Below, piece by piece: positions 19,502 to 49,822 of a stretch of DNA of 64,000 bases. The notes under the pieces are model-generated. The model did not search any database, was not told where the DNA came from, and saw nothing but the letters and a program-made list of their open reading frames with translations. Position 1 is the stretch's first letter, and the number at the start of each line of letters is the position of its first letter. The translations under genes and the position numbers were made by a program. This stretch comes from a virus: IMG/VR virus record IMGVR_UViG_3300028800_000002, positions 64,001-128,000 of that record. One strand, 5' to 3'.

Positions 19502-21577
19502 ATGAGCATTCCTGGCGCGATGAGTATGGGCGGCGTTGGCGCCGGAGGCGGGGGTCGTTTCAATGCAACGCGGGGTCGCATCAACAATGGGTTTAGTCAG
19601 GGTGTCAACTACCCAAGCCCATTCTTTGATATCGCTCACACTTACTTGCCGGTCACGGTCAAGGGCATGTTCCGTTGGTGCAGGTATTACTTCCTCACCA
19701 ATCCCATCATCAATGCCGCGGTTTTCAAACTTTCGGAATACCCCATCACTGAGCTGCTTATCGACCATGAGGACAGCAAGGTTGCCAAGAAGTGGAAGGA
19801 ATACTTCGAAGACCACTTGAACTATCGAGCGTATCAGATTGAGTGCGGCCTCGATTACCACACGTATGGCAATTGCCTTTCAAGCTTGAGTTTCCCCTTC
19901 AAGAAGTACCTGACGTGCCCTCAATGTAAGTTCCAGGCGGAAGCCAAGCGGATACGTCCCCATTGGGTGTTCACCAATTTTGAATTCAGGTTGAGTTGCC
20001 CCAAGTGCGGTTACCTGGGTACCGCGAAGTCGAAGGACATCTACTTCAAGAACGAGGCCGGGGTTCGCGTGATGCGATGGAACCCTGAGGATGTTGAGGT
20101 AACCCACTCAGATTTGACTGGTGAGTACACGTACTTTTACAACATCCCGCCAACGATCCGCAACGACGTCATTATCGGCAAGAAGGATGCTGTCGAGAAG
20201 GTGCCTGAGGTGTTCATCCAGGCATTGAGGCAGCAGAAGGGGATTGTATTCAACCAGGATACGTTCTTCCATCTACGGCGCCCCACGCTGGCAGATCAGG
20301 ATCGTGGTTGGGGCCTGCCACTGTTGCTGCCCTGTTTGAAGGACACGTTTTACCTGCAGCTGATGAAGAAGGCACAGGAGTCCATTCTGCTCGAGCACAT
20401 TCTTCCGCTGCGTATCCTGTTTCCGCAGGCGGGTTCTGGGACTTCTGATCCTTACACAAGCATCAATCTTGTCGACTGGCGGGATCACGTAGCTACGGAA
20501 ATTGCCCGTTGGCGCATGGATCCCAATTACATCCCCATCCTGCCGTTGCCCATTGGTAACCAGACTATTGGTGGAGACGGTCGGGCACTTCTTCTCGTGC
20601 AAGAGATGCAAGCACTCAGCGAGCAGCTCATCAATGGCATGCAGGTTCCCCTCGAGTTCATCAAGGGTGGTTTGAGTTACGCTGGCACGAACGTGTCCAT
20701 GCGCATGCTTGAGAACCAGTTTATCGTGTACCTGTCGCGGCATGAGAGGATGGCCAACTGGGTGATGCGGCAAGCGGCTGACTACCTCGATTGGCCGATG
20801 GCGCATATTCGATTCAAGCCGTTCAAGATGGCTGACGACATTCAGCGCAAGGCCTTCTTGTTCCAACTCAATCAAGCGAACAAGATCAGTGACACCACAC
20901 TGTTGGCGGATTCCGACTTGAGCCAGGAGGATGAGGACAACATCATGGAGCGCGAGACTGCCGCGCGCATGAAAGCGACAGAGAAGCAGCAAATGGCCAT
21001 GGCGCAGCTTCAAGGTAAGCAGCAGTCCATCATGATGAAGATGCAAGCCAAGGCTCAGCAAGAAGCCCAGCAAGCTGCTATGGCTCCGAACGCCCCTGGA
21101 GAACCAGGTGGGCCAGAGGCGAATACTGGAGCACCCGGAGGTCAGGGCGGAGTCCCCGCATTGCCATCGGCATCCCCGGATGGTGCCTCACAGGATCCAA
21201 TGCCCGCGGTACAGAGCCCGCTCAGCGCTGGACAGAATATGGGCATGGGTACTAGTGGTCCTGCGGGGCAAGCGATGTTGGGTGGTTCGAGCATCCTGGC
21301 GATGGCACAGACCATCGCGTCCCAATTGTCTCAGCAGGATCCTGCCAGTCAGATGCTTGCGATCAAGCAACTCAAAACACAGTACGGCCCAGAGCTAGCA
21401 GACTTAGTTCTGCAGTACTTGCAGACGATGCCAGGAGCTGCCCCTCAGGGACAACCTGGGCAAGGTGGCCCAGCTGGTATGCAAGCACTGGGGGCTAACG
21501 GTGCAGCTGCGACTCAAGTGGACATGCGGCCACTCCCAGACAAGCTCCCTCCGCGCAGAGCTGCAGCTACGGTTTAG
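19502..21577 (+). CDS. portal protein with zinc-ribbon insertion and Q/G/P-rich tail
   Basis: NPIINAAVFKLSEYP, DYHTYGNC, RWNPEDVEV, FHLRRP...GWGLPLL are portal-like segments; CPQC/CPKC insertion. Confidence 0.75.
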   Translation: MSIPGAMSMGGVGAGGGGRFNATRGRINNGFSQGVNYPSPFFDIAHTYLPVTVKGMFRWCRYYFLTNPIINAAVFKLSEYPITELLIDHEDSKVAKKWKEYFEDHLNYRAYQIECGLDYHTYGNCLSSLSFPFKKYLTCPQCKFQAEAKRIRPHWVFTNFEFRLSCPKCGYLGTAKSKDIYFKNEAGVRVMRWNPEDVEVTHSDLTGEYTYFYNIPPTIRNDVIIGKKDAVEKVPEVFIQALRQQKGIVFNQDTFFHLRRPTLADQDRGWGLPLLLPCLKDTFYLQLMKKAQESILLEHILPLRILFPQAGSGTSDPYTSINLVDWRDHVATEIARWRMDPNYIPILPLPIGNQTIGGDGRALLLVQEMQALSEQLINGMQVPLEFIKGGLSYAGTNVSMRMLENQFIVYLSRHERMANWVMRQAADYLDWPMAHIRFKPFKMADDIQRKAFLFQLNQANKISDTTLLADSDLSQEDEDNIMERETAARMKATEKQQMAMAQLQGKQQSIMMKMQAKAQQEAQQAAMAPNAPGEPGGPEANTGAPGGQGGVPALPSASPDGASQDPMPAVQSPLSAGQNMGMGTSGPAGQAMLGGSSILAMAQTIASQLSQQDPASQMLAIKQLKTQYGPELADLVLQYLQTMPGAAPQGQPGQGGPAGMQALGANGAAATQVDMRPLPDKLPPRRAAATV

Positions 21578-22055: not shown

Positions 22056-23492
22056 TCAGGCAACTTCGGATTGGACCAGATCGTCGAGCTCGATGATTTC
22101 TCCCCACTCAGCAGGCTTTGCTTTGTAGGGTGTTGGCACGATGCACCAAATGAACTGCATGTTCTGTGGGGCTACATCAGGCGCCACACCAGCACCGTCT
22201 GTTAGGTACATCGTCATGTGCGGTCTTGGGAAGAACTCTGTGTCGACAAAGTTGATGGCTTGTCGGAAGTCTGTGCCACCTCTTCCCAATATTTCAATAG
22301 AGCGCAGATCCGCTGGAGTCACCAGGATGGGGGTGCGCTTACCATCCGTATCCGCCTCCATGAACCAGGCATGTTGGATTCCTGTCTGCAGCATAACGTC
22401 AGACATGACCTTGAGCGCGTCCGCGATTTGTCCTCTCCCCATCGATCCAGAGCTGTCTACGATGAAGAATAGAACCGGGTCGTAGCCAATGAGTCCCGGT
22501 AAGGTAATCCCCCTCAAGTAGGAGCGCTTCGAGGGGCGCCGCATGCTGTAGTCAAGTCCACCGCTGCGGATGCGCCCAATGGACAGGCGAGCCATGTTGG
22601 CCAGCTTGCTTCTCCATGGGACATCAAATACGGTTTCACTGACTTCCACCAGTTCAGCCCAACTTCCTGGTAAGGTTCCTCGACCTTGCTGGGATTCCAT
22701 GTGCTGCTTGATGGCCCGCGCTGTCTCTCTGGCTACGTTCTTGCAGTTTGCTTCTGACCGGCCTTTTTCTGCGCTCTGCTCCTTCTCCAGCTCCTTGCCG
22801 ATTGGGTTACCTGCTATGCCACCGCAGCATCCGGATAGAATTCTGGGTGAACCTTTTCCTTCAGCCTCACAGTCAGGGCAGTGGCCGCCCTCGCCGTTTT
22901 CTCCTTCCCCGTCACCCTTTCCGTGCTGGCACTTCGCGGGTTTGCTGCTCGATTTGCTCTTGCTTTCATACTGCTCGAGGAGCTTGTAGTACGCATCAGC
23001 CGTCAACCCTTCTGGGAATCCGTACTGTTCTGGCATGAGCGCCCAGTCCGGGAACTCCCACATGGGTTCAGTGACTATGTTCGATCCGTTCGACGACTTC
23101 TGGCCAGTGACACGCACCTGTTTCGTTTGCGCGCGCATTGAGCTGTTGATGAATAGATCCCCAGCGCGGTTGAATCGTTTGGGATCTTCGTAGCCAGATC
23201 CTCGCCGTACGTGAAGGAGTTGGGCATGCATGCACTCATGCATTAGGCCTGTAGCGACTACAATAGCGCTAGATGCTTCTACCCAAGCTGGGTCGTATAC
23301 GAGCACCAAGTTTGCACTTACTCCCATGGGCCCACCTACGAGCTTCATGAGATTTTCTACTGGCGATGGCACCAACGCGTACAAGGTCGAGCACATGTAG
23401 GGAGCGTATTGCTTCACATATGCTCGACCGATGACGAGAGGCGAGGCTTTTGCTCGCGCGTGCCACCCCTTACCTGAGGGGTTGCCTGCCAT
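22056..23492 (-). CDS. VWA-domain protein with N-terminal HExxH metallopeptidase-like domain (DUF2201 type)
   Basis: LMHECMHAQLLH; MIDAS IVDSSGSM, GRGGTDF, YLTDG. Confidence 0.85.
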   Translation of the reverse strand: MAGNPSGKGWHARAKASPLVIGRAYVKQYAPYMCSTLYALVPSPVENLMKLVGGPMGVSANLVLVYDPAWVEASSAIVVATGLMHECMHAQLLHVRRGSGYEDPKRFNRAGDLFINSSMRAQTKQVRVTGQKSSNGSNIVTEPMWEFPDWALMPEQYGFPEGLTADAYYKLLEQYESKSKSSSKPAKCQHGKGDGEGENGEGGHCPDCEAEGKGSPRILSGCCGGIAGNPIGKELEKEQSAEKGRSEANCKNVARETARAIKQHMESQQGRGTLPGSWAELVEVSETVFDVPWRSKLANMARLSIGRIRSGGLDYSMRRPSKRSYLRGITLPGLIGYDPVLFFIVDSSGSMGRGQIADALKVMSDVMLQTGIQHAWFMEADTDGKRTPILVTPADLRSIEILGRGGTDFRQAINFVDTEFFPRPHMTMYLTDGAGVAPDVAPQNMQFIWCIVPTPYKAKPAEWGEIIELDDLVQSEVA

Positions 23493-23495
23493 TAT

Positions 23496-24749
23496 TTAGG
23501 TCCTTTGCTCCAAGTATTTACCGAGGCCGCTGTCTGCCAATGGCACAAGTACCAGATTGGCTGCTGCCTTGATTGCGGATTTCCCGGAAGCGTGCCCTAG
23601 ACGTTCCTTGATGAGTCCTTCCACCGCTGGAATTACAATGTCAGACAGCTCAGCGTCAAGCAGCTTGGCAATTGCTTTCCATGCCAGTGGGGCAAGGTCC
23701 TCTTGTTCTGCTCGAGTGGGGCGCTGTCTGACGTAGGCTACAGCCCCAGTATAGGCCGCAAGTACAACGTCCAGACGATCTTTGTTGATTTTCCATTTGC
23801 CGTTGAGAACGTCGAGGGGCTTGGGAAGGTCCGCCTCATGGAAGTAGCGAATGAGTTCTTCAGCAGCCCCGGATCCTACGCAGGCTTCAATCATGGCATC
23901 TCGGATTCCATCGCTCTTCTCTAGGATTCTTGCGGTGGTCCATGCCCTAGTGGCAAAGTCCCATGTGCGGTGAGAGGGCCATGCCTTGCCACAGTTCGGG
24001 TCACTCATTGGCGGGCGTTTGTGCAGCAGTGATGGATTGCTCTCGATGAAGCCAGCGAACAGGCTTTGTGCTTCAGGGTAGAGGTTTGGCCACTCATCGA
24101 TGACAGCCTTCTCGATGTCGTCCAGCGAACCTTGCAGGCGCACCGCGGAAGATCCCATAAGCCACGTGGTCCATTCGCGCGCATCTGGCCCTGGGTCTGT
24201 GATGTGGATGAATCGATTCGCTAGCGGTGGTGAAAGACGGAAGCCACAGGCTGCAATTTCCTCTGGATTCATGGCTGCAAGGATGCGCACACGGTGGGGA
24301 ATGTCCAAGTCTCCGGTGTGTCGTTCATGGATCAAGCTCATCAGCGCTCCCTGCGTTGCAGGCATAGCGCCGTTGATTTCATCGAAGAACAGAATTCCTA
24401 CCTTCTCTTTGACCATTCTCCGTATCTGAGGAAGAGGGGCGATATGGGTTGCATCACCTTTCCCGTCAGGGATGAGAGCTCCACCGAAGTCTTCTGGAGG
24501 ATGGGGCGCTGCGTAGATTGTGGACAGGTGGGTTTGCAGGGATGCAGCAATTCCCTTGATGCGTGCCGTCTTGGCGATGCCGGAATCCCCTTCAATGAGC
24601 AGTGGTAATCCCCATTTGCAGTCTGGCTTGCCTGGGTAGCCATCCATCGGCGCGGATACGGAGACTTCAATAATCTCATCGACCTCTGAGCTCTTGAGTG
24701 TGGCTCCAGACAATGCGCTTGCGGGTGCGGTAACTTTCTTAGCGGCCAT
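23496..24749 (-). CDS. MoxR-like AAA+ ATPase
   Basis: Walker A GDSGIAKT, Walker B LFFDEIN, AAMNP, LANRF; immediately upstream of the VWA gene. Confidence 0.85.
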   Translation of the reverse strand: MAAKKVTAPASALSGATLKSSEVDEIIEVSVSAPMDGYPGKPDCKWGLPLLIEGDSGIAKTARIKGIAASLQTHLSTIYAAPHPPEDFGGALIPDGKGDATHIAPLPQIRRMVKEKVGILFFDEINGAMPATQGALMSLIHERHTGDLDIPHRVRILAAMNPEEIAACGFRLSPPLANRFIHITDPGPDAREWTTWLMGSSAVRLQGSLDDIEKAVIDEWPNLYPEAQSLFAGFIESNPSLLHKRPPMSDPNCGKAWPSHRTWDFATRAWTTARILEKSDGIRDAMIEACVGSGAAEELIRYFHEADLPKPLDVLNGKWKINKDRLDVVLAAYTGAVAYVRQRPTRAEQEDLAPLAWKAIAKLLDAELSDIVIPAVEGLIKERLGHASGKSAIKAAANLVLVPLADSGLGKYLEQRT

Positions 24750-26045: not shown

Positions 26046-26052
26046 GTAATTC

Positions 26053-26217
26053 TTATCTCGGATTGTTCCTGGTGTTTTTTGCTGCCTGTGCCGATTCGTT
26101 TTGGTTGACACCGAACAGACTTGCCACCAAAGTCTCGTAGCGTTGGCCGGTACTTTGTGAAGTAACTTGCTTCTTTTTGCCTCGTTGAGTAGTCTTAGTA
26201 GGCACACGCTTTTCCAT
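26053..26217 (-). CDS. possible small basic protein (54 aa)
   Basis: MEKRVPTKTTQRGKKKQ...; preceded by the same CCGAGATAAGA 11-mer. Confidence 0.3.
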   Translation of the reverse strand: MEKRVPTKTTQRGKKKQVTSQSTGQRYETLVASLFGVNQNESAQAAKNTRNNPR

Positions 26218-26304
26218 CAAAGCTCTTATCTCGGTGTTTCTGCAGTCCTTGCGCATATTCCATGAGCGGTTGCCTGGAGGGTGCGGTTATACTCTGGAGA
26301 ACGC

Positions 26305-29300
26305 ATGTCGTACCTGGATCCAGTCGAAGCCTTTGAACATTACCGGGATCGTTCTCTTGAAGCGATTCGAAGTCAGTTCCCAGTCGACGGGCGTAACCAA
26401 GTCTTGGAATTGGAGAAACTCGAGGTTCAGGACAACTTAGATCCTGACGATATTCGGAGCCAGCATCAAGCCAAGGTGAGCGGACAGACTTGGGGTGTGC
26501 CCGTTGTTGCTCATCTGATTTTGAGAGACAAGCTCACCGGTAAAGAAGTCCGTGCCAAGACTAGGATTGCCGATTTGCCTAAAGTCACCTGCCGGCACAG
26601 CCAGATAGTTTCGGGGCAAGAGTACCAGGTAGACAACCAGTGGCAGCTCAAGCCTGGCGCCTATGTGCGCCGTAAGCAGACTGGTCAAATAGAGACGCAG
26701 TTTCAGTCAACTAGGAAGCCATCCTTCAAAGTCACTTTTGACGATGAGTCGAAGGAATTCCGTGTTGAGTTCGGTACCAAGGCGCGCATTCCGTTGTACC
26801 CGCTGCTATCCACGCTGGGGGCATCCGACGCGGATTTGGAGAAGACTTGGGGCAAGGATATTCTTGCGGCCAACAAGGGTGCTCGTAACGTTGCGGGCGC
26901 CGTTGACAACTTTTACCGCACCACGCGTAGGGTAGACCCTCCGTCGCAAGCTGCTGCTATCAGCAATGTAACGCAGCACTTCAAGGACTTCGATTTGCGA
27001 CCTGACGCTACGGCAGTTACATTGGGTCGCCCAGCGGATCATGTAGACAGTGATGTTCTGCTGCGCGCCACCCGCAAAATGATTGATGTGCATGGTGGTG
27101 CTCCAGAGGATGATCGTGATTCTCTGATCTTCAAAGACCTGCGCAGCGTGGGGGATTTTTCCTTTGAAAAAATTCTCAAGGAAGGCCCTGCCATTCGCCG
27201 TAAGATGCAGCGCCAAATCAACGATGCGTCGTCGCCTAGGGATGTGGTTCGGCTCGAGGCCTTCAACAAACCCATCCGTGAGACCTTCTACAAGAATTCT
27301 GCCGCGCAGGTAGCCAAGCAGGTGAACCCTGTCGAGATGTTATCTGCTGCGCAGCAGACCACGGTTATGGGCCCTGGTGGAATTCAGTCGGAGAATGCCA
27401 TCCTAGACGAGGTGAAGTTCATCAATCCCTCGCACATGTGCTTCTTGGATCCTATACATACGCCTGAGGGAAGTAAGACTGGCATTACGCTGCGAATGCC
27501 CTTAGGTGTGCGTAAACATGGGATGGAGCCTCAGGTTCCTCTCTACAACACGCGTACAGGAACCACTGACTATGTGGGGCCTGCCACGTTCCTTCGTTCA
27601 CGCGTGGTGTTACCTGACCAAGTCGAGTGGCATGGAGATCACCCTGTGCAAAAGGGTCCCATGGTGAAGTGGTCAGCCCCTGGCAATGAGATTGCTGAGG
27701 GGCACTTGAAAGACGCCGACTACGTGATGCGTCATCCTTCGCAGTTCTTCAACGTCACGAGTAATCTCATTCCGTTTGTAGGCAATACATCAGGCGGCAG
27801 AGCCTCGATGGCCACTCGGCACATGGAGCAGGCCATTTCTCTTGAGCATAGGGAATCCCCCTTGGTTCAGGTGGGTACGGGACGAGACTGGCCTGGGGCC
27901 AGCACCTTTGAAGAGGTAGTTGGTACACAGGCCTCGCACCATGCCCCTGTGGCCGGCACCGTAAAGAAGGTCGGAACGGATGCCATTGTAGTTACCGACG
28001 AAGCAGGGCACGACCATGAAGTCCAGACGTATCGGAACTACCCGCTCAACGACGCGAAGTCCGTGCTGGATTCTACTGCGTTGGTCAAGCCTGGCGACCA
28101 CGTAAAGAAAGGGCAGGTGATTGCCGATACCAACTTCTCAAAGAACGGCGTCATCGCGCTGGGTACAAACTTGCGCGTGGCCTATATTCCATTCAAGGGC
28201 TACAACTTCGAAGACGGGGTCGTTGTTAGCGCTAGCGCTGCCAAGAAGTTGAGCAGCGTGCATTTGCACAAGCACAACTTGTCTGTTGACGACGACACCA
28301 TTCTGGCAAAAAGTCGTTTCCTTACGCAGCACATCGGTCTTTACAACAAAGACCAAGTCAGCATGATAGGAGACGATGGCGTTGTCCGTGTTGGCTCACG
28401 CGTGCAGCCAGGAGACCCGCTGATCTTGGCTATGAAGAAGACCACTGCCCAGGATCGCACTGGGTTGTCTGCCATCCGTAAGAGTCTGGGGGACCAGTTC
28501 TCGGATCAGTCATTGACTTGGCACGGGGAAGGTCCGGGAGAAGTTGTTGGATCTTTTCGGCACGGCGGCGAAGTAATTGTTCACGTCAAAGCCATTGAGC
28601 CCATGCAGGTGGGCGATAAGCTTGCAGGTCGTTACGGCAACAAGGGCATTGTCACCAAAGTGGTACCCGACGCGGAGATGCCACATACGAAGGATGGGGA
28701 CCCAATTGAGGTTGCACTCAACCCTTCAGGGGTGCCTGGTCGTATGAATCTTGGGCAGGTGTTCGAGACGGCAGCGAGCAAGATCGCGAAAAAGACTGGC
28801 AAGCCTTATGTAGTGAACAACTTCAACGGCTCTAACCAACTTGCCAAGTTGCAGAAGGAACTCAGCGCCCATGGCATTTCAGACACAGAAGTTCTCATTG
28901 ACCCAGTAACAGGGCACACGCTTGGACCAGCCATGGTCGGCTACCAGCACCTTATCAAGTTGCACCACCAGGTGGACAAGAAGGTCTCTGTGCGCTCTGG
29001 ACTCAATCTACCAGGGCAAGAGCCAGGTCGTTATGACATCAACATGCAGCCTTCCGGGGGCGGACACGCCGGCGGGCAGTCCATGGATCCGTTGGGTCTT
29101 TATGCGATGCTGGCGCACGGGGCCCGCGCCAATATCCGTGAGATGCAGACGTGGAAGAGCGAAGGCCCCGACATGTCGACTAGTCCCCAGAAGCAATGGC
29201 AGAGCCAGCATCATGATGTGTGGGATGCCATCCAGCATGGGGACGCGCTCCCAACACCCAAGCCCACCTTTGCCTTCAAGAAGTTTACAGATATGTTGAT

Positions 29301-32300
29301 TGGCGCTGGCATCAACATTGAAAAACGTGGGCATGAGCTTGTACTGTCCCCGTTGACGGATGCCCAGATCAAGAACCTCACGGGGGATCGTGTTCTGCCT
29401 AAGCCTGCCGAGCTGCTATACGCAAAGATCGACGCGAAAACTGGGGAGCCTCGCCCTAAGCCCGGTGGGCTCTTCGACGAGAAGCTCACTGGCGGGCATG
29501 GCGGCAAGAAGTGGAGTCGGATTGAATTGTCCGAGCCAGTTCCGAACCCAATTTTCGAGAGCTCGATCAAGGCCATTACTGGTTTGAGTTCGGATGCATA
29601 CATGTCACTAGTGGAGGGTCGTCGTGCAATTGACGCTGCCGGGCATGACGTTCCTGTTGGCAAGGGGCTGACTGGAGGAGCCGCGATTCAGCACTTGCTG
29701 TCGAATATCAACGTGGACTCCGCGTTGCGTGTAGCTAAGAAGGAGTTGAGCACGGTCCCCGCATCCAAGGTGGATTCTACGCTCAAGAAGGTCAAGCGTC
29801 TTCAAGCGCTGCAGCAGGCTGGAATGTCTCCAGCGGAGGCGTACGTGTTGCACAACCTCCCTGTGTTGCCTCCTGCAATGCGCCCGATCCCAGTATTACC
29901 TGATGGAAACTTCAGTGTTTCCGATATCAATGAGTTGTATTCCCAATTTGCCCAGGTGAATTCTCAATTGGGTGACCCAACGCTGATCCACAACCTGACA
30001 GAGGAGCAGAAAGTACCGTTACGTGCAGGCGTCTATGACGGCGTAAAGGCCCTGCAGGGTATCGGAGTCCCATATGCCGATGCTCAGTACAAAGGACTCA
30101 TTCATCAGATCCACGGGGCTCAGCCGAAGACTGGGTATTTCCAGAGCACGCTAATCAGCCGCAAGCAAGACCTCAGCATGCGGTCAACTATTGTCCCAGA
30201 GCCTTCCCTTTCTCTGGATGAGGTTGGGTTGCCGGCGGAGCATGCCATGAAGTTGTTTGCTCCGTTCGTTGTTGGGGAGTTGAAGAGGTCTGGCGTGTCG
30301 GCCACTGTTCTTGATGCGCAGAAGTTAGTTGCTAAAAACACGGTGTCCGCCCAGCGCGCATTGCGCACGGTAATGAAGGATCGCCCAGTGCTATTGAAGC
30401 GAGACCCAGCCCTGCACAAGTACAGCATCCAGGCGTTTCGCCCCAAAGTCGTTGAGGGAAATGCTGTCAAGATCCATCCCTTGGTTACTGGCGGTTACAA
30501 CGCGGACTTCGATGGGGATACTATGAGCGTGTTCGTGCCGATCAGCGATGAGGCAGTCGCAGAGGCTCGGAAGATGTTCCCCTCGAACAACTTGTTTAGT
30601 GAGGCCACAGGTAGTGCGATGTACCAACCTACGTTGGAATCTGCGCTGGGGTTGTACAAGCTTTCGCGTGTGAATGATGGCAAGGCTCATGATATGTCAC
30701 ACCCTGCAGCAGCGTTACTCGCGGTGCAGAGCGGCAAGATCAACGTCAATGACAAGGTAAAGATTGGCTCCCAAGTAACAACGCCAGGACGTATTCTAGT
30801 TTCCGCAGCACTACCTGAGCCCATGCAGAAGAGAATGCTTGAGGACTTGACTTTCAGCTTGGATAAGAAGGGGCTAGGCAAGCTCCTAACTCAAGTTGGT
30901 AAGGAGCATAGTAGCGACTACTCTGGTGTTGCTGATAAGCTCAAGGACATTGGGAATGGGGCCTCTAGCGGCGTTGTGACCGTGGAGCATGATGGGTTTG
31001 TTGGCGCTGACCGATTGGATCCTTCGAAGCGCATGTACATCCCTGTGGGTGTGCACACGCTAGGGTTGGAGGATTTGGCTCCTGATATTACTACAAGGGA
31101 ACGGGTACTAGGTCCTGCGCGTAAGAAGGTTGAGGCTATCGAGAATAACCCGCACATGCAGGGTGCACGGGGAGATCGAGAGATCGTCAAGATTTGGGCA
31201 GATGCCACTAGCGAAATGAAGCAGGAGCATTTATCGCGGCATGCGGGCACGCCAAACAACTTGATGACGATGCACTTGTCTGGCGTGAAGCCAGGTTGGG
31301 ATCAGTACAAACAGCTGACGTTGGCACCTATGCTTGTGAAGGATGCTTCGGGCAGGACCATTACGACCCCGATCATGCACAGCTACGCCGAAGGATTGGA
31401 TACCGGCGAGTATTGGACGCAGATGCATGGCGCTAGGCACGGAGCCGTAATGAAGGTGCAGGAGGTGCGTGAGCCAGGTTACCTCTCCAAGTTGATGATG
31501 GCCAACACCATGGATATGGTGGTCTCCGGGCACGACTGCCACACTGAGCGAGGGATTTCTCTCCCAGTAACTGAGGACAGCGTGCACGATAGGTTTCTCC
31601 AGAAAGATTTTTCGGCTAAGGGCATGCATGTGGAGGCAGGTACACTGCTTACGCCTGACATAGTCTCTAAGATGCGTTCAGCTGACAGGAACGCCAAGAT
31701 TGAAGTGCGCAGCCCGCTGAAGTGTGAGCATGCGAAAGGCGTCTGTCAGAAGTGCATGGGCATCGCGTCAACCGGGCAATTACATGGGGTAGGGGAGAAC
31801 GTCGGTGTTGTCTCTGCCCAGTCGCTCGGAGAGCGCGCTATGCAGTTGACGCTGCGCGTATTCCACACGGGAGGTTCCGTGGATGTAGGCGGCGGCTCTA
31901 AGGCGTTGGGAGGTTTTGACCGTTTCAACGAGCTGATGACACTCCCAAAGAAGCTACCCAATTCCGCCACGCTGGCGATGCGCACAGGCGTTATTGAGAA
32001 GGTAGAGAAAGATGCTACCGGTGTGAATGTCTTCATCGGCGGAAAGAAGCACCACATCGGAAAGGATGTCGGTGGGCAGCCGCTGTGGAAGACTGAGAGT
32101 GACGAGGTTCCTGTCGGATGGACTCCTCCGCATGCTGGGATGCGCGTAGATAAGGGTCAGTTGTTGAGCGATCCTCGACGCACGGTTGTCAATCCCCACG
32201 ATCTCTACAAGGCTACGGGCAGCATTGAGTCCGTACAGAATTACATGACGGATGCCATGTACCAGCTGTACAAGGACGAGGGGATCAAGCGCGGGCACAT

Positions 32301-32700
32301 TGAGACTGTAGTCAAGGCCATGAGCAACCTGACCAAGATCAGGGACCCAGGGGATTACGACGGTGTGCTGCGGGGAGAGTTCCAACCCACATCGGTGATT
32401 ACTGCGGTCAACCGAGAACTGGCGCGGCATGGCAAGCGTCTCATCGAGCACGAGCCGGAACTCAAAGGGGTAGAGATGATGCCCCTATCCTTGCAAGAGG
32501 ATTGGATGGCAAAAATGCAGCATGAGCATTTGAGGACTACCCTGCTCGATGCTGCGAATACAGGCGGTAGGTCGAACCTGCATGGTCTACACCCAATCCC
32601 AGGGATGGCCTATGGGGCTGAGTTCGGGTTGACTTCTGCCCACGCTAAGGGGAGATTGTCGCTATCTCATCTTCATGATGTTCCGGAGCATGCGTACTAA
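26305..32700 (+). CDS. rpoBC: single-chain multisubunit-type RNA polymerase, beta-beta' fusion (about 2131 aa)
   Basis: beta motifs GPGG, TPEG, GYNFED, GDKLAGRYGNKG, NPSGVPGRMNLGQ; beta' motifs LPVLPP, NADFDGD (30499-30519), HGAR...GYL, RSPLKC...CQKC, AQSLGE...RVFH; one uninterrupted frame; start ATG 26305 with GGAG SD. Confidence 0.95.
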   Translation: MSYLDPVEAFEHYRDRSLEAIRSQFPVDGRNQVLELEKLEVQDNLDPDDIRSQHQAKVSGQTWGVPVVAHLILRDKLTGKEVRAKTRIADLPKVTCRHSQIVSGQEYQVDNQWQLKPGAYVRRKQTGQIETQFQSTRKPSFKVTFDDESKEFRVEFGTKARIPLYPLLSTLGASDADLEKTWGKDILAANKGARNVAGAVDNFYRTTRRVDPPSQAAAISNVTQHFKDFDLRPDATAVTLGRPADHVDSDVLLRATRKMIDVHGGAPEDDRDSLIFKDLRSVGDFSFEKILKEGPAIRRKMQRQINDASSPRDVVRLEAFNKPIRETFYKNSAAQVAKQVNPVEMLSAAQQTTVMGPGGIQSENAILDEVKFINPSHMCFLDPIHTPEGSKTGITLRMPLGVRKHGMEPQVPLYNTRTGTTDYVGPATFLRSRVVLPDQVEWHGDHPVQKGPMVKWSAPGNEIAEGHLKDADYVMRHPSQFFNVTSNLIPFVGNTSGGRASMATRHMEQAISLEHRESPLVQVGTGRDWPGASTFEEVVGTQASHHAPVAGTVKKVGTDAIVVTDEAGHDHEVQTYRNYPLNDAKSVLDSTALVKPGDHVKKGQVIADTNFSKNGVIALGTNLRVAYIPFKGYNFEDGVVVSASAAKKLSSVHLHKHNLSVDDDTILAKSRFLTQHIGLYNKDQVSMIGDDGVVRVGSRVQPGDPLILAMKKTTAQDRTGLSAIRKSLGDQFSDQSLTWHGEGPGEVVGSFRHGGEVIVHVKAIEPMQVGDKLAGRYGNKGIVTKVVPDAEMPHTKDGDPIEVALNPSGVPGRMNLGQVFETAASKIAKKTGKPYVVNNFNGSNQLAKLQKELSAHGISDTEVLIDPVTGHTLGPAMVGYQHLIKLHHQVDKKVSVRSGLNLPGQEPGRYDINMQPSGGGHAGGQSMDPLGLYAMLAHGARANIREMQTWKSEGPDMSTSPQKQWQSQHHDVWDAIQHGDALPTPKPTFAFKKFTDMLIGAGINIEKRGHELVLSPLTDAQIKNLTGDRVLPKPAELLYAKIDAKTGEPRPKPGGLFDEKLTGGHGGKKWSRIELSEPVPNPIFESSIKAITGLSSDAYMSLVEGRRAIDAAGHDVPVGKGLTGGAAIQHLLSNINVDSALRVAKKELSTVPASKVDSTLKKVKRLQALQQAGMSPAEAYVLHNLPVLPPAMRPIPVLPDGNFSVSDINELYSQFAQVNSQLGDPTLIHNLTEEQKVPLRAGVYDGVKALQGIGVPYADAQYKGLIHQIHGAQPKTGYFQSTLISRKQDLSMRSTIVPEPSLSLDEVGLPAEHAMKLFAPFVVGELKRSGVSATVLDAQKLVAKNTVSAQRALRTVMKDRPVLLKRDPALHKYSIQAFRPKVVEGNAVKIHPLVTGGYNADFDGDTMSVFVPISDEAVAEARKMFPSNNLFSEATGSAMYQPTLESALGLYKLSRVNDGKAHDMSHPAAALLAVQSGKINVNDKVKIGSQVTTPGRILVSAALPEPMQKRMLEDLTFSLDKKGLGKLLTQVGKEHSSDYSGVADKLKDIGNGASSGVVTVEHDGFVGADRLDPSKRMYIPVGVHTLGLEDLAPDITTRERVLGPARKKVEAIENNPHMQGARGDREIVKIWADATSEMKQEHLSRHAGTPNNLMTMHLSGVKPGWDQYKQLTLAPMLVKDASGRTITTPIMHSYAEGLDTGEYWTQMHGARHGAVMKVQEVREPGYLSKLMMANTMDMVVSGHDCHTERGISLPVTEDSVHDRFLQKDFSAKGMHVEAGTLLTPDIVSKMRSADRNAKIEVRSPLKCEHAKGVCQKCMGIASTGQLHGVGENVGVVSAQSLGERAMQLTLRVFHTGGSVDVGGGSKALGGFDRFNELMTLPKKLPNSATLAMRTGVIEKVEKDATGVNVFIGGKKHHIGKDVGGQPLWKTESDEVPVGWTPPHAGMRVDKGQLLSDPRRTVVNPHDLYKATGSIESVQNYMTDAMYQLYKDEGIKRGHIETVVKAMSNLTKIRDPGDYDGVLRGEFQPTSVITAVNRELARHGKRLIEHEPELKGVEMMPLSLQEDWMAKMQHEHLRTTLLDAANTGGRSNLHGLHPIPGMAYGAEFGLTSAHAKGRLSLSHLHDVPEHAY

Positions 32701-33971
32701 TGCCTAGGCAAGGTCTCAAGGAAGCACGCGGTGCTCGTAAGCAGAACACCGAATTCCGATCCTCCATGACGCAGCCGGAGGGGCTGGGAAAGACGGACAT
32801 CTTCCTTGGCCGCGTAGTGAACGTTGATGTGGTGAATTACACCGTCGACGTGTTTAGCCAGTTCGACCAGATGCGCTGTTTTCAGATTGCGGTGGGCTCG
32901 CCTTACCTGCACTCGAACCGTGGTGATGGTATGACCTGCATGCCAGAGGTAGGTTCCAAGTGCGCTGTGTGCTGGCCAGGGGACAGCTCGCCTCCATTCG
33001 TGTTTGCATTTGTGATGCCGCACGAGACTATTCCTATGGCGTCTTACCCGGATGCCCCCGATGGCACAACCAGCCATGGCAGTAGCAATCAGGCGGCCAC
33101 CGCGGCGAGCTTCGCTGGCGGCAGGCCAGTGGCCAAACCCGGTGACATGTTCATGCGTGGACGTGATGGGAATTTTGTTGTACTGCACCGCGGAGGGGTG
33201 CTGCAGATTGGTAGCAATGAGCTTTCTCAGCGCATTTACGTGCCACTCAACAACTTGGTGATGGACTTTGCCGAGAATTACGCGATGCACACGGCGGGGG
33301 GTTCCATCAAGTGGGGTATCCAAGAGGGGGAGGGGATTACAACATTACCCACTGAGTACAAGCAAGCACTGCGCGTGTATGCAAACGATAAGTACGCTGA
33401 CATCCGCATCGCTGCTGGAAGGGTGCATGACCCAGTCCCAGAAACGGATTCAGATGCCATAATGGATCAGGAGCTAATAGGTATTGGTAAGGCGGAGCCT
33501 ATTGTCTACGAGATGACTTTGGCCAGAGGGGGGTTCAATGGGGAGGATGGATCCCTATTGCCCAGCACTGGCTCGCTTGTGCAATTGAGGTTCTCCTTCG
33601 ACCGCAGTGGTAACGCTTTTCTCAAGATGGGAGGTAACGTTGGCATTTTATGCCAGAAGCGCTTGCATTTGAGGGTCAAAAAGGAACTAGAGATTTTCGC
33701 AGACAGTACTTTCGACATGACGGTGAAAAAGGATGCCCGCATTACCGTTGGCGGCACATTGGCCATAACAGCCACCGTTCTTAGGATCAATGGCGGGAAG
33801 AGCCCAATGGCCACTGTAGGTAGTGGAGTCACCGTTACACTGCCACCTACGCTGCTGATGGCGATACCAGGCCCCCCTGGTTTTGCTCCCATTAGCGCGG
33901 TACCTACAATGATGATTGCCACAGGTTCGGTCACTAGCGGTGATCCAACTGTGCTTGGGAATGGTGCCTGA
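32700..33971 (+). CDS. baseplate central spike (gp5/GpV-like)
   Basis: N-terminal OB-fold pattern LGRVVNVD...TVDV...MPEVGSKCAVCW; beta-helix-like strands (LHLRVKKELEIFADSTFDMTVKKDARITVGG); PAAR-like end ATGSVTSGDPTVLG. Confidence 0.7.
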   Translation: MPRQGLKEARGARKQNTEFRSSMTQPEGLGKTDIFLGRVVNVDVVNYTVDVFSQFDQMRCFQIAVGSPYLHSNRGDGMTCMPEVGSKCAVCWPGDSSPPFVFAFVMPHETIPMASYPDAPDGTTSHGSSNQAATAASFAGGRPVAKPGDMFMRGRDGNFVVLHRGGVLQIGSNELSQRIYVPLNNLVMDFAENYAMHTAGGSIKWGIQEGEGITTLPTEYKQALRVYANDKYADIRIAAGRVHDPVPETDSDAIMDQELIGIGKAEPIVYEMTLARGGFNGEDGSLLPSTGSLVQLRFSFDRSGNAFLKMGGNVGILCQKRLHLRVKKELEIFADSTFDMTVKKDARITVGGTLAITATVLRINGGKSPMATVGSGVTVTLPPTLLMAIPGPPGFAPISAVPTMMIATGSVTSGDPTVLGNGA

Positions 33972-39009: not shown

Positions 39010-39043
39010 CGTTTGAGGGCTCTTGGTGGGTGTCGGGGGGAAC

Positions 39044-40855
39044 ATGGCAGCTATTGAGGTCTATCCTGATGAGTATGGTCCCGATGGTACACCGCTTTCC
39101 GATGAGGAGCTACGTCAAATAGAGCTCGGGGGCTGTTGGGCTCCGGAGGCTGAGCAGTACGTTGACCACTTTGAGGATGAGTTTGATCCCCATGTAGCAA
39201 ACGATGCGCCACCTATGATTCTGCCCTCGGCATTTACGGAATACGCCTTCCGGATGCCGACCCCTGATGGGTTCGAGAACTTCTCGTTTGAAGGTCGGCG
39301 GCATCTTCGGCAGGTGTACGACACTCCGATTCGGCGCATCCTCTTGATGTGTGGCCGCCAGGTGGAGAAGTCCACACTGCTTGGCAACCGGTCATTGAGC
39401 TACTGCTGCCTCATCCCGTCTTACAAGGTGCTTTACGTGAGCCCGTCTGCCACGCAGACCAAGACGTTTTCCAACGACCGTATCAAGGAGCCCATCGAGA
39501 CTAGCCCAGTGTTGCGCGCATTCACGACGCACATGCTGTCTCAGAACATCTTTGAGAAGCAGTTCATCAATCGCTCGAAGATTACATTGCGCAATGCCTT
39601 CTTGAATGCTGACCGTGCCCGCGGCGTCCCCGCGCACATGTTGGACATCGACGAGATTCAGAACATTCTCGCCGACAACATTCCCGTCATTGAGCAGTGC
39701 CTCTCACATTCACCGGAGAACATGAAGCGTTATGTTTACTCCGGAACGCCACTGACGCTGGACAACGTCATTGAGGACTACTGGTCTAATCGTTCCACGC
39801 AGAACCAGTGGGTTGTGCCATGTGATTGCCTAGTGGGGGAGGCGGGTCGTTACTGGAACATCCTTGGTGAGAAGAACATCGGGCTGCACAATCTGATCTG
39901 TGAGCGTTGCGGCAAGCAGATATTCCCAATGTGCACTGATGCCCAGTGGGCATGCTCGGTTGACTACGACCCAGTCCACACACCGTTCGAAGGATTTCGT
40001 ATCCCTCAGTTGATGGTGCCATGGCTCGATTGGGATGAGCTTCTTTACAACTTTGAGCATTACGGTCGAAACAAGTTCTACAACGAAGTACTCGGTATCT
40101 CGTACGACACGGGGCTTCGCCCGTTGACCAGCGCGCAGATTAGAGCCTGCTGCAACGAGAATGTCTTCATGGCAGACGCCCCCAAGTACCAGGGCTTGGG
40201 CTTTGGTCAGGAGATCTTTGCCGGCATCGACTGGGGCACAGGAGAGCATAGCTACACGGTGCTCACGTTGGGGACGTACATCGGAAACAAGTTTAGGATT
40301 TTCTACATCCACAGGTTTGTTGGCGAGGACACAGAGCCTGAGCGCCAGCTGCAGAAGATCGAAGAGGTCTGCCGAGCGTACAACGTGCGCGTTATCGGAG
40401 CCGACTACGGAGGTGGACATTACCCCAATGACTTCCTGGTTCGGCGCTTCGGTAGAGAGCGCGTGATGCGGTATCAGTACGCTGCCCGTTTATCCGCCAA
40501 GGTTAGGTGGGAGCCAAAGCTACAGCGCTGGATTGCGCACCGCACTGAGGTCATGAGTGCGATCTTCAACTCAATCAAGCGTGCCACCGTATTTGAGTTT
40601 CCCCGTTGGAAGGAATTCAAATCCCCCTATGGTCAGGACTGCTTGAACATCTTCAGCGAATACAACGAGAAGATTCGTATGATTCAGTACGGGCACACCG
40701 CCGGCAAGACCGATGACGCCTTCCACTCGATCTTGTATTGCTTCCTTGCCTCTATGGTGACGAAGCCGCGTCCCGATGTAATTGCCCCAGGTAAGGAAGC
40801 TGACGCGATAGGCTCTGTGTGGTCTTCTTACAGCGGCCCAACAAATCAAGGTTGA
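39044..40855 (+). CDS. terL: terminase large subunit
   Basis: Walker A GRQVEKST, Walker B LDIDEIQ, coupling motif YSGTP, nuclease AGIDWG and DDAFHS; CDC/CERC zinc insertion; start ATG 39044. Confidence 0.9.
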   Translation: MAAIEVYPDEYGPDGTPLSDEELRQIELGGCWAPEAEQYVDHFEDEFDPHVANDAPPMILPSAFTEYAFRMPTPDGFENFSFEGRRHLRQVYDTPIRRILLMCGRQVEKSTLLGNRSLSYCCLIPSYKVLYVSPSATQTKTFSNDRIKEPIETSPVLRAFTTHMLSQNIFEKQFINRSKITLRNAFLNADRARGVPAHMLDIDEIQNILADNIPVIEQCLSHSPENMKRYVYSGTPLTLDNVIEDYWSNRSTQNQWVVPCDCLVGEAGRYWNILGEKNIGLHNLICERCGKQIFPMCTDAQWACSVDYDPVHTPFEGFRIPQLMVPWLDWDELLYNFEHYGRNKFYNEVLGISYDTGLRPLTSAQIRACCNENVFMADAPKYQGLGFGQEIFAGIDWGTGEHSYTVLTLGTYIGNKFRIFYIHRFVGEDTEPERQLQKIEEVCRAYNVRVIGADYGGGHYPNDFLVRRFGRERVMRYQYAARLSAKVRWEPKLQRWIAHRTEVMSAIFNSIKRATVFEFPRWKEFKSPYGQDCLNIFSEYNEKIRMIQYGHTAGKTDDAFHSILYCFLASMVTKPRPDVIAPGKEADAIGSVWSSYSGPTNQG

Positions 40856-48706: not shown

Positions 48707-49822
48707 ATGTCGGTTTCGGCGAGCGTTCTAAACGAGCTTTTTGCTTCAAAACTCAGCACGAGTGAAGGCAAAGAGAAGATTGCCGAATACGGTGGTTCTT
48801 ACATTCGTGACCGCCTTCGTGAGGTGAGCTTTGCTCGCAAAGTTATCCCGCCGGAGCAGGTTACGCGTGCGGACTGCCAACGTTCGGTAAACCACGACAC
48901 CTTGGTCAAGGTTGTGGACATTGAGCCACAATCGCGCGCCATGGCGATTACATTCCGAGGGCAACCCAATGCTCGCTTCATTCGAGGCGACAGGGCTGAG
49001 ATTGCCTTCTTCACCATCAGCTCTGAGATGTTCCAGAAGACGGAACAGGAGCTCTTGGCTTACGAGATGCCCATCACCAAGGTCATCGAAGAGAACTCGG
49101 TGAAGGACATCCAGGAGATTGAGGATCGTGAATTCACGATCCACATCGAGGCTGCGGTTCAAGCGCTGCAGACTGAGGCCAATGGTGGGACGTCAGTGCC
49201 CCTCCATGTAGGCACCATCGGGTCAACGGTTGAGTTCTCCGTGCGCAAGGGCGAGCTTGCTCGTAATGCGTCCGGGAACACGGCAGAGGTTCTGCCGGTT
49301 CAGCGCCCCGACCTCATCAACCTCTTCAAGATGCTGGACGGCAACCGACTGCGTGCTGAGCGCATGCTCATGACCGAGGTCGATTGGGATGACATTCTGC
49401 AATGGACGGTGGAAGACTTCGGTGACCGCGTTCAGTCTGAGACTACGGTCGATGGCTACAAGTACAATACCCTCCTGGGGCATTCGTACATTCGTACCAT
49501 CAAGACCGACATTCTCCGGCCGGGCAACGTCTACATCTTCACCAAGCCCGAGTTCTTTGGCAAGTTTTACGTGTTGAACAACACGAAGTTCTACATCGAT
49601 AAGATTGCCAACACGATCACGTTCCAGGCCTGGGAAGATATCGGTATGTCGGTGCTCAACATTGCCGCAGTTCGAAAGCTCGAATTGTACTCGGGTGATG
49701 CGACGCTGGGCGATGCAGACGGTCTGCTCACCAACTTCATTCCGAAGGCGGAAGACGCTTTGGGCGCGGTCAACAACCGCGTTTCCGAAGGGCTCAAATT
49801 CCCGCAGGTTTCTCAGTTCTAA
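48707..49822 (+). CDS. major capsid protein (HK97 fold)
   Basis: AAGGAG SD; 371 aa; follows protease, scaffold and decoration genes; followed by a strong terminator; alternating helix/strand pattern consistent with the HK97 fold. Confidence 0.8.
   Translation: MSVSASVLNELFASKLSTSEGKEKIAEYGGSYIRDRLREVSFARKVIPPEQVTRADCQRSVNHDTLVKVVDIEPQSRAMAITFRGQPNARFIRGDRAEIAFFTISSEMFQKTEQELLAYEMPITKVIEENSVKDIQEIEDREFTIHIEAAVQALQTEANGGTSVPLHVGTIGSTVEFSVRKGELARNASGNTAEVLPVQRPDLINLFKMLDGNRLRAERMLMTEVDWDDILQWTVEDFGDRVQSETTVDGYKYNTLLGHSYIRTIKTDILRPGNVYIFTKPEFFGKFYVLNNTKFYIDKIANTITFQAWEDIGMSVLNIAAVRKLELYSGDATLGDADGLLTNFIPKAEDALGAVNNRVSEGLKFPQVSQF

Follow-up and report, generated by a model that had tools for sequence, protein, structure and literature searches.

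Multisubunit RNA Polymerases of Phages and Natural rpoBC Fusions

Reviews published up to June 2026 describe the multisubunit RNA polymerases of phages as split into four or five pieces and as lacking sigma, alpha, and omega, while phages that encode sigma factors are described as lacking a polymerase of their own and as employing these sigmas to take over the host polymerase core (PMC7598289, PMC7824862, PMC13282480). The gene considered here lies at positions 26305-32700 of a 64-kb stretch of viral DNA (the window, bases 64001-128000 of the 186,443-bp IMG/VR virus record IMGVR_UViG_3300028800_000002, which is rated 100% complete) and belongs to a lineage that breaks both rules, having a predicted full bacterial-type core in one beta-beta' chain, and its own sigma-70-family gene, but neither an alpha nor an omega gene. 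In the literature outside subscription journals, no account was found of a bacterial-type phage polymerase that is a single chain and comes with a sigma. The family is already present in public databases, and it relates both to known phage two-barrel polymerases and to natural rpoBC fusions. Positions below are those of the window unless the genome is named.

The enzymes of phiKZ- and AR9-like phages resemble the window enzyme in being phage-encoded two-barrel polymerases without alpha or omega (PMC7598289, PMC7824862). They are built from four or five polypeptides in two paralogous sets, one of which is carried in the particle (PMC7598289, PMC7824862), whereas the window phage has one chain and one set. 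They also have no sigma-70 homologue and use gp68 or gp226, whereas the window phage has a sigma-70-family gene (gp68/gp226-like genes were not searched for in its genome). They are far more divergent as well, in that their PHROGs families score 40-123 bits here compared with 268-375 bits for the enzyme's own families. Both barrels are likewise held in one polypeptide in crAss-like phi14:2 gp66, in YonO, and in the P23-45 tape-measure fusion, and some polymerases of this type are virion-carried (bioRxiv 10.1101/2020.03.07.982082, 10.1101/2022.12.01.518664). These are minimal enzymes, far removed from cellular ones and with most beta/beta' domains missing, whereas the window protein aligns with bacterial beta and beta' over their full length. 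The beta' protein of Rhizobium phage RHph_TM30 (UniProt A0A7S5UVX6) shares the full-length bacterial-type fold (template modelling [TM] score 0.72), with about 26% identity over residues 1081-1867 of the window protein. Beta' proteins of this type are encoded by separate genes of about 1130 amino acids (aa), unfused to beta, and fall outside the family of the window polymerase.

The natural rpoBC fusions of Helicobacter and Wolbachia are chromosomal genes that keep the zinc ribbon, and the cells that carry them retain alpha and omega. As in the window protein, beta precedes beta' in one chain, and their models (NF007172 and NF011417) are the best-scoring ones in NCBIfam; the scores of 521 bits against a cut-off of 5372 and 503 against 4632 are nevertheless about tenfold short. 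The model lengths are approximately 2840-2890 aa, compared with 2131 aa for the window protein, which differs further in lying in a phage genome, in having no zinc ribbon, and in having almost no linker.

The closest described systems are those of Salmonella phage Arash (Gp206 and Gp216 with the sigma Gp10; OQ632216.1, PMC10585845) and of the Vibrio phages D69, D148, and D181, which belong to the same deep lineage as the window phage and, like it, have genomes of 181-187 kb. Arash and D69 share portal, terminase, capsid, tail proteins, sigma, and polymerase with the window phage at 25-32% identity, and phages of this type have the same beta-beta' junction, the same zinc-ribbon loss, the same portal-polymerase order, and in all cases a sigma-70-family gene. 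The traits of this lineage that were found in the window phage are the direct junction, the Gly-rich loop in place of the zinc ribbon, and a cognate sigma gene, together with the setting, a myovirus of about 165-200 kb in which the polymerase gene comes after the portal. The two forms differ in that beta' of Arash and D69 is cut near residue 1500, giving pieces of about 1525 aa (beta and the N-terminal half of beta') and about 606-609 aa (the rest) that are encoded 0.6-4.8 kb apart, whereas the window protein is unbroken, and in their catalytic motif, AADYDGD rather than NADFDGD. In D181 and D148 (OZ196140.1, OZ196545.1) the polymerase match is broken into three, and a homing endonuclease gene lies within the matched stretch; selfish endonucleases may have caused gene splitting in the cultured lineage. 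The Arash genes were annotated as beta, beta', and RpoS, and the fusion went unremarked (PMC10585845).

A Predicted Complete Core Enzyme in One Chain

The window gene occupies a single open frame on the plus strand that runs from 26281 (GTG) or 26305 (ATG) to 32700, as seen in the list of open reading frames and its translations. Because the gene callers of two public assemblies give the identical 2131-aa product, residues are numbered from the ATG at 26305. Along the protein, Pfam domains occur in the order Rpb2_3 and Rpb2_6 in the first half, followed by Rpb1_1, Rpb1_2, and Rpb1_5 in the second. The features below were placed by alignment to enterobacterial RpoB and RpoC, with family members as bridges, except where another basis is named.

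26296-26299, plus strand: Shine-Dalgarno sequence GGAG, five bases upstream of the ATG at 26305 (read directly from the sequence)
26305-32700, plus strand: gene for the single-chain beta-beta' RNA polymerase, 2131 aa, 232.5 kDa, with its TAA stop at 32698-32700
26305-29334, plus strand: beta part, residues 1-1010, with lobes, fork, flap, and clamp end, and without SI1 (E. coli beta 215-357) and SI2 (beta 938-1049)
27298-27381, plus strand: rifampicin-pocket region, in which E. coli D516 is replaced by K, H526 by A, R529 by Q, and S531 by T (column-by-column alignment)
28459-28497, plus strand: flap-tip-like helix (alignment to E. coli beta 885-937; flexible, low-confidence tip at residues 717-728 of the model)
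28612-28647, plus strand: beta active-site motif GDKLAGRYGNKG, residues 770-781, with the equivalents of E. coli K1065 and K1073
29308-29361, plus strand: fusion junction, residues 1002-1019
29335-32697, plus strand: beta' part, residues 1011-2131, without SI3 and part of the jaw (PDB sequence search, bacterial beta' at an expectation value [E] of 1e-102)
29488-29514, plus strand: Gly-rich loop TGGHGGKKW replacing the beta' N-terminal zinc ribbon (E. coli C70, C72, C85, C88)
29920-29970, plus strand: first clamp helix of the coiled coil (alignment to E. coli beta' 245-335; helical hairpin at residues 197-241 of the beta' model)
30499-30519, plus strand: catalytic NADFDGD, residues 1399-1405, with the Mg-binding Asp triad
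31429-31506, plus strand: bridge helix (alignment to E. coli beta' 765-805)
31534-31761, plus strand: second zinc site, kept, with nearly invariant cysteines equivalent to E. coli C814, C888, C895, and C898
31816-31875, plus strand: N-arm of the trigger loop, with no SI3 insertion after it (flexible tip in the model)

Taken together, these features indicate that the gene product is the complete catalytic core of a bacterial-type two-barrel RNA polymerase in one 232-kDa chain, beta followed by beta', as judged from sequence and predicted fold. Each half was modelled separately with AlphaFold2. The beta half (predicted local distance difference test score 83.1) matched Thermus beta (4oin_C) in Foldseek with an E of 1e-72 and a TM score of 0.77, and the beta' half (83.5) matched Staphylococcus aureus beta' (8x6f_D) with an E of 4e-62, a TM score of 0.79, and a root-mean-square deviation of 5.4. 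The C-terminal 120 residues of the beta half were poorly predicted when modelled alone, which is unsurprising, as this segment intertwines with beta' in the clamp. Among active-site residues, K772 and K780 are the equivalents of the E. coli lysines and an equivalent of H1237 is also present, and the lid and rudder region is retained. The substitutions in the rifampicin pocket would predict an enzyme insensitive to this drug. The first-pass annotation of this DNA, which was made from the letters alone, had proposed a phage-encoded beta-beta' polymerase of bacterial type in one intact frame of this length, and the reading frame, the domain order, and the sequence and fold matches bear it out; the junction and the NADFDGD motif that it quoted were both recovered.

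At the junction, the last beta residues, GINIEK, are followed within about three residues by ELVLSPLTD, which corresponds to E. coli beta' from approximately residue 19 onward, and there is no linker. The same junction is found in Arash gp206 and in D69 0261. Both parts are shorter than their enterobacterial counterparts, as had been noted earlier, with about 1010 aa for beta and about 1121 aa for beta', compared with 1342 and 1407 aa in E. coli. Relative to E. coli beta, residues 215-357 (SI1), 938-1049 (SI2), and two further short segments are absent; relative to E. coli beta', residues 1-18, 64-99 (the zinc ribbon), 150-170, most of 948-1175 (SI3 and part of the jaw), and the last 15 are absent. 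Thus, the shortness is real but does not reflect general miniaturization: by alignment, it stems mostly from missing lineage-specific insertions, which are absent from many bacteria too. What does set the protein apart from bacterial enzymes is the loss of its zinc ribbon. A similar Gly-rich loop occurs in all relatives aligned, and its glycines G1063, G1064, and G1067 are invariant in the family.

Conservation of the Fusion Among Relatives

The identical protein is encoded on a contig of a second, independent assembly in ENA. A word-indexed search returned at least 120 clusters of relatives at 54-83% identity and 2119-2163 aa, many of them on contigs of 185-200 kb. In an exhaustive cluster search, for which the query was 1200 residues with the junction in the middle, the best 150 representatives of separate 50%-identity clusters all matched at an E of 1e-203 or less, and nearly all of these matches crossed the junction. 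At least 566 IMG/VR contigs encode relatives, and each of the best 80 does so in one continuous frame, at identities down to 36%. Across an alignment of 26 family members, at identities as low as 32%, the junction residues G1002 and P1016, the Asp triad D1401, D1403, and D1405, and the lysines K772 and K780 are invariant. The public-database label for the family at JGI is "beta' subunit".

Relatives of 2400-4739 aa were also found, many of which carry LAGLIDADG or intein-splicing domains (P0013, P0016, P0021, P0025, P0026, P0031, and others). In the intein-type relatives, breaks in the match cluster just after NADFDGD (near residue 1407) and at the GDKxxGRxGNKG motif (near residues 775-783), and insertion of inteins at active-site motifs is as expected of an essential gene. 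One relative, L181 (JGI 3300063038, contig Ga0598261_0004390), at about 52-56% identity, has a single frameshift at nucleotides (nt) 5552-5556 or thereabouts, near residues 1354-1374, because of which gene calling split its polymerase into products of 1521 and 591 aa. It is a sequencing error or a broken copy, and the candidate for a true split form within the close family (P0136, 1521 aa) was accordingly rejected as this frameshifted copy.

The frameshift in L181 is the nearest thing to a hint that the long frame might be an artefact (chimeric assembly, two genes read through as one, or a dead gene), and nothing was found in favour of that explanation in the window gene itself. The identical protein in two assemblies, the continuous frame and conserved junction on hundreds of independent contigs, the invariant catalytic residues, and the position of the relatives' inteins at active-site motifs all speak against it. 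Because the second assembly and the many independent relatives preserve the fusion, we consider an assembly artefact or a dead gene to be ruled out, with a residual probability that is close to nil.

Evolutionary Position of the Lineage

Identity to bacterial enzymes is 26-32% throughout. In NCBIfam, the protein scores 479 bits against a cut-off of 963.5 for rpoC (TIGR02386) and 355 against 896 for rpoB (NF001616), and archaeal models score about 100 bits. Because its scores lie under the rpoB and rpoC equivalog cut-offs, the protein is a homologue rather than an orthologue-level member of these families. The phylogeny against bacterial RpoB and RpoC that the first-pass annotation had called for was run on the concatenated halves (maximum likelihood, LG+G4, 43 rows and 2059 columns, with no outgroup, few phyla, and long branches). 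A branch with 100% support and a length of about 1.5 changes per site separated all 19 phage sequences from all 24 bacteria, drawn from five phyla, and the phage clade was not nested in the Pseudomonadota, the host phylum of the cultured relatives. Recent capture of a host rpoBC locus is ruled out by the low identity, the missing SI1, SI2, and SI3, and the separate phage clade.

Within the phage clade, Arash and D69 nest inside the fully fused proteins, although the alternative was not rejected by an approximately unbiased test (p 0.31). The beta-beta' junction itself is common to all of these proteins and ancestral in the lineage. When family members were sought in bacterial genomes or plasmids, the matches listed included only ordinary two-gene rpoB-rpoC loci. 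The window phage belongs to a very large and almost unstudied lineage.

Sigma, Alpha, and Omega

The first-pass annotation had recognised no alpha, omega, or sigma gene and had advised a search of the remaining genome. Within the 64-kb window all three are indeed absent, and in the complete genome alpha (PF01000) and omega (PF01192) gave no match at an E of 1 or less, while controls matched in 14 of 14 genomes. For sigma, however, the genome-wide search had a different outcome:

Genome 165364-166125, outside the window: sigma-70-family gene, 253 aa (profile matches)

Region 3 of this protein scores 44.1 bits (cut-off 25.3), and regions 2 and 4 score 13.8 and 15 bits, both of which are below the cut-off but in the correct order. 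Its nearest NCBIfam models are SigB/F/G and FliA/WhiG, all far under cut-off; it is 32% identical to Arash Gp10 (E 5e-23), and no paralogue of it was found in the genome. Sigma region 3 was detected in 10 of 11 related records (above cut-off in eight), which span 31-72% polymerase identity. Since a sigma-70-family gene is present both here and in those relatives, the enzyme is not factor-free. In the Arash genome, a second, weak match to sigma region 3 (15 bits, E 0.004) was seen at 89987-90133 on the minus strand, in a 291-aa frame that may be a second sigma-like gene.

In bacterial enzymes, the clamp helices are the docking site of sigma region 2 and the flap tip that of sigma region 4. Conservation of both elements in the window protein fits, without proving, the phage sigma as the partner of the single-chain core, and we infer that it serves in this role. 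Because the phage encodes neither alpha nor omega, these subunits are probably dispensable for the enzyme. The suggestion made earlier that the fusion replaces the alpha-dimer scaffold would fit the absence of both genes. The alpha-less enzymes of phiKZ and AR9 assemble without any fusion (PMC7598289), so fusion is not required for doing without alpha.

A Promoter-Like Motif

A two-part motif, cG(c/t)AAt - 17 nt - GATAAGAA, was found upstream of about 10 minus-strand non-structural genes, followed after approximately 3 nt by the ribosome-binding site TAGAAGGAG. The spacing of its parts is that of sigma-70-family promoters. With at most one mismatch, GGGGATAAGAA occurs 11 times in the genome compared with two in a reversed control, and the corresponding counts in three relatives are 12 versus 2, 11 versus 0, and 15 versus 2, an enrichment overall of 5-10-fold; a relative at 40% identity uses GGGTATAAGAA. 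This enrichment is confined to the longer motif, counted at a fixed distance from the ribosome-binding site and against the reversed control, as the plain 9-mer count does not exceed that of shuffled sequences (45 versus 36). Eight strict copies lie outside the window, all on the minus strand (genome 16416, 18272, 22191, 23113, 23767, 28689, 42109, and 149835), and all are 3-4 nt upstream of a near-identical ribosome-binding site, so a transcript initiated at any of them would be nearly leaderless. The divergent region just before the polymerase gene contains two variants:

26223-26233, minus strand: CGAGATAAGAG, motif variant facing away from the polymerase gene
26050-26060, minus strand: CGAGATAAGAA, second motif variant, before the minus-strand gene at 25340-25951

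Matches to the sigma-70 consensus in the polymerase region were not in excess (2 found, 4.9 expected).

A Proposed Mode of Action and Its Alternatives

The window phage is probably equipped with transcription machinery of its own. In the clamp of solved bacterial enzymes, the C terminus of beta adjoins the N terminus of beta', and engineered as well as natural beta-beta' fusions are active. Given this proximity, joining the two should not disturb the fold, and the single chain would form a normal core. The 253-aa phage sigma would bind this core at the retained clamp helices and flap tip and would direct it to the two-part phage promoters described above, with the enzyme probably working without alpha and omega. 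The polymerase would probably be made late, together with virion proteins, and be packed into the particle; on entering the cell with the DNA, it would make phage transcription independent of the host polymerase. We lean toward this proposal as a whole, that of a sigma-guided, alpha- and omega-free, packaged single-chain enzyme that is independent of the host polymerase, with moderate confidence. A more far-reaching version would have the 2131-aa chain and the 253-aa sigma form a two-polypeptide holoenzyme that is packed in the capsid, injected, resistant to rifampicin, and free of host subunits, in a lineage that would be sister to all bacterial RNA polymerases and not a captured copy. This version is tentative, and on balance we do not expect it to hold in full.

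Packaging is suggested by proteomics of Arash and by gene position. In gradient-purified Arash particles, Gp206 gave more spectra (3516, at 100% coverage) than any other protein, the capsid protein included, and Gp216 and the sigma Gp10 were also detected (PMC10585845). The polymerase gene is placed in a virion block beside the portal in three distant lineages, and in the window the relevant genes are as follows:

19502-21577, plus strand: portal gene (29-31% identical to its counterparts in Arash, portal gp204, and in D69)
39023-40855, plus strand: large terminase (PHROGs phrog_675, E 3e-54)
48707-49822, plus strand: major head protein (PHROGs phrog_2522; 28% identity to the Arash capsid protein gp226)

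Several observations weigh against the proposal. The Arash preparation was made by sucrose gradient and pelleting rather than by caesium chloride banding, and its proteins included ribonucleotide reductases, RNA ligases, and other enzymes that are clearly not structural (PMC10585845), so carry-over is possible; for this reason, packaging of the polymerase, while plausible, is rated at about even chances. Lys-x-Ala sites, which are candidate processing tags of head proteins, occur only twice in the polymerase, both times in catalytic motifs, and as a sign of packaging these tags are uninformative in either direction. One related record, G005 (IMGVR_UViG_3300045971_000895, 198 kb), is the sole complete relative with no sigma region 3 match at an E of 0.01 or less; its sigma may be too divergent for detection, or it may be absent. 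Moreover, the sigma could serve the host core instead, as is usual for phage sigmas. Finally, the promoter-like motif is limited to minus-strand non-structural genes, and the plus-strand virion genes, including the polymerase gene itself, are without it.

Some of these points can be accommodated if the enzyme is not packaged and the host polymerase reads the early genes, after which the single-chain enzyme and the phage sigma are made and take over middle and late transcription, much as the non-virion polymerase does in phiKZ-like phages. The obvious non-structural enzymes in the Arash preparation would agree with this, as would the lack in the polymerase of Lys-x-Ala tags, which are enriched in the neighbouring head proteins, and the single polymerase set, in contrast to the separate virion and non-virion sets of phiKZ-like phages (PMC7598289). 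Against it stand the spectral count and coverage of Gp206 in Arash particles, the gene's place next to the portal in three distant lineages, and the failure of sigma-70 consensus matches in the polymerase region to exceed chance, and we regard an unpackaged enzyme as unlikely. The sigma raises an issue of its own, since it might redirect the host core to phage promoters, as the phage sigmas T4 gp55 and SPO1 gp28 do, leaving the single-chain enzyme with another, unrecognised factor or none. The reviews call phage sigmas typical of phages without their own polymerase (PMC7598289, PMC13282480), and the phiKZ and AR9 enzymes use factors without sequence similarity to sigma. A sigma nevertheless accompanies the fused polymerase in all but one of the related records across a wide range of polymerase identity, both of its docking sites are conserved, and it was detected in Arash particles alongside the polymerase; a sigma reserved for the host core is on this evidence quite improbable.

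The remaining alternative concerns the subunits that the phage does not encode. The fused core might depend on the host alpha dimer, and perhaps on omega, as a captured and streamlined rpoBC would. It has the bacterial beta/beta' fold and domain order along its entire length, and the alignment shows no obvious deletion in the segments with which bacterial enzymes touch alpha. Yet the protein is just 26-32% identical to all bacterial enzymes sampled, and the phage clade lies some 1.5 changes per site from five bacterial phyla without being nested in the Pseudomonadota. The hosts of the relatives are as different as Salmonella and Vibrio, and the habitats are many, which makes a conserved fit to host alpha less likely, and other phage multisubunit polymerases function without alpha and omega (PMC7598289, PMC13282480). 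Dependence on host subunits is therefore rather doubtful, and we favour a core that works with the phage sigma and without alpha and omega.

If the core and its sigma prove to be self-sufficient, the pair would be the smallest known sigma-dependent holoenzyme and would offer a direct test of what alpha and omega do, as well as a convenient structural target and a candidate orthogonal transcription system. If the two-polypeptide, sister-lineage version were true, the pair would be the simplest known bacterial-type sigma-dependent machine and would give a view onto the early history of the enzyme. The lineage is common, given that 566 or more contigs in IMG/VR encode relatives and that clusters at 50% identity number more than 150, and the cultured Salmonella and Vibrio relatives make these predictions testable at the bench.

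Genome Context

That the record is a phage, as assumed in calling the polymerase phage-encoded, is confirmed by a complete 186-kb genome with terminal repeats (127 bp) and genes for portal, terminase, and capsid. Only one beta/beta' match was found in the whole genome, which disposes of a second polymerase of this kind. No T7-like polymerase was found in the genome, in a search that had no positive control and is hence not conclusive. ARAGORN found no transfer RNA or tmRNA genes in the 186 kb, and thus tRNAs give no clue to the host.

On the strand map, a long plus-strand virion block begins with the polymerase gene. The stop codon of this gene overlaps the start codon of the next:

32700-33971, plus strand: 423-aa gene, its ATG overlapping the polymerase stop (TAATG); also found downstream of the polymerase in relatives

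Neither this 423-aa protein nor those encoded by the next genes (214, 734, and 341 aa) had a Pfam or PHROGs match. Arash gp217, which is annotated as a DNA helicase and occupies the same position, was considered as a homologue of the 423-aa protein and was rejected, as comparison gave no relationship.

In Arash and D69, the polymerase gene directly follows the portal gene, whereas in the window the two are separated by a four-gene cassette on the minus strand, which consists of the following pair and two small genes:

22056-24749, minus strand: MoxR-like AAA ATPase (AAA_5/AAA_3, 417 aa) adjoining a DUF2201 protein (478 aa) (Pfam)

The DUF2201 protein has a putative metallopeptidase domain and a VWA-like domain; PHROGs labels it an HNH endonuclease, without support from Pfam. 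The MoxR-like ATPase and DUF2201 pair is also found upstream of the polymerase gene in a relative at 57% identity (L006).

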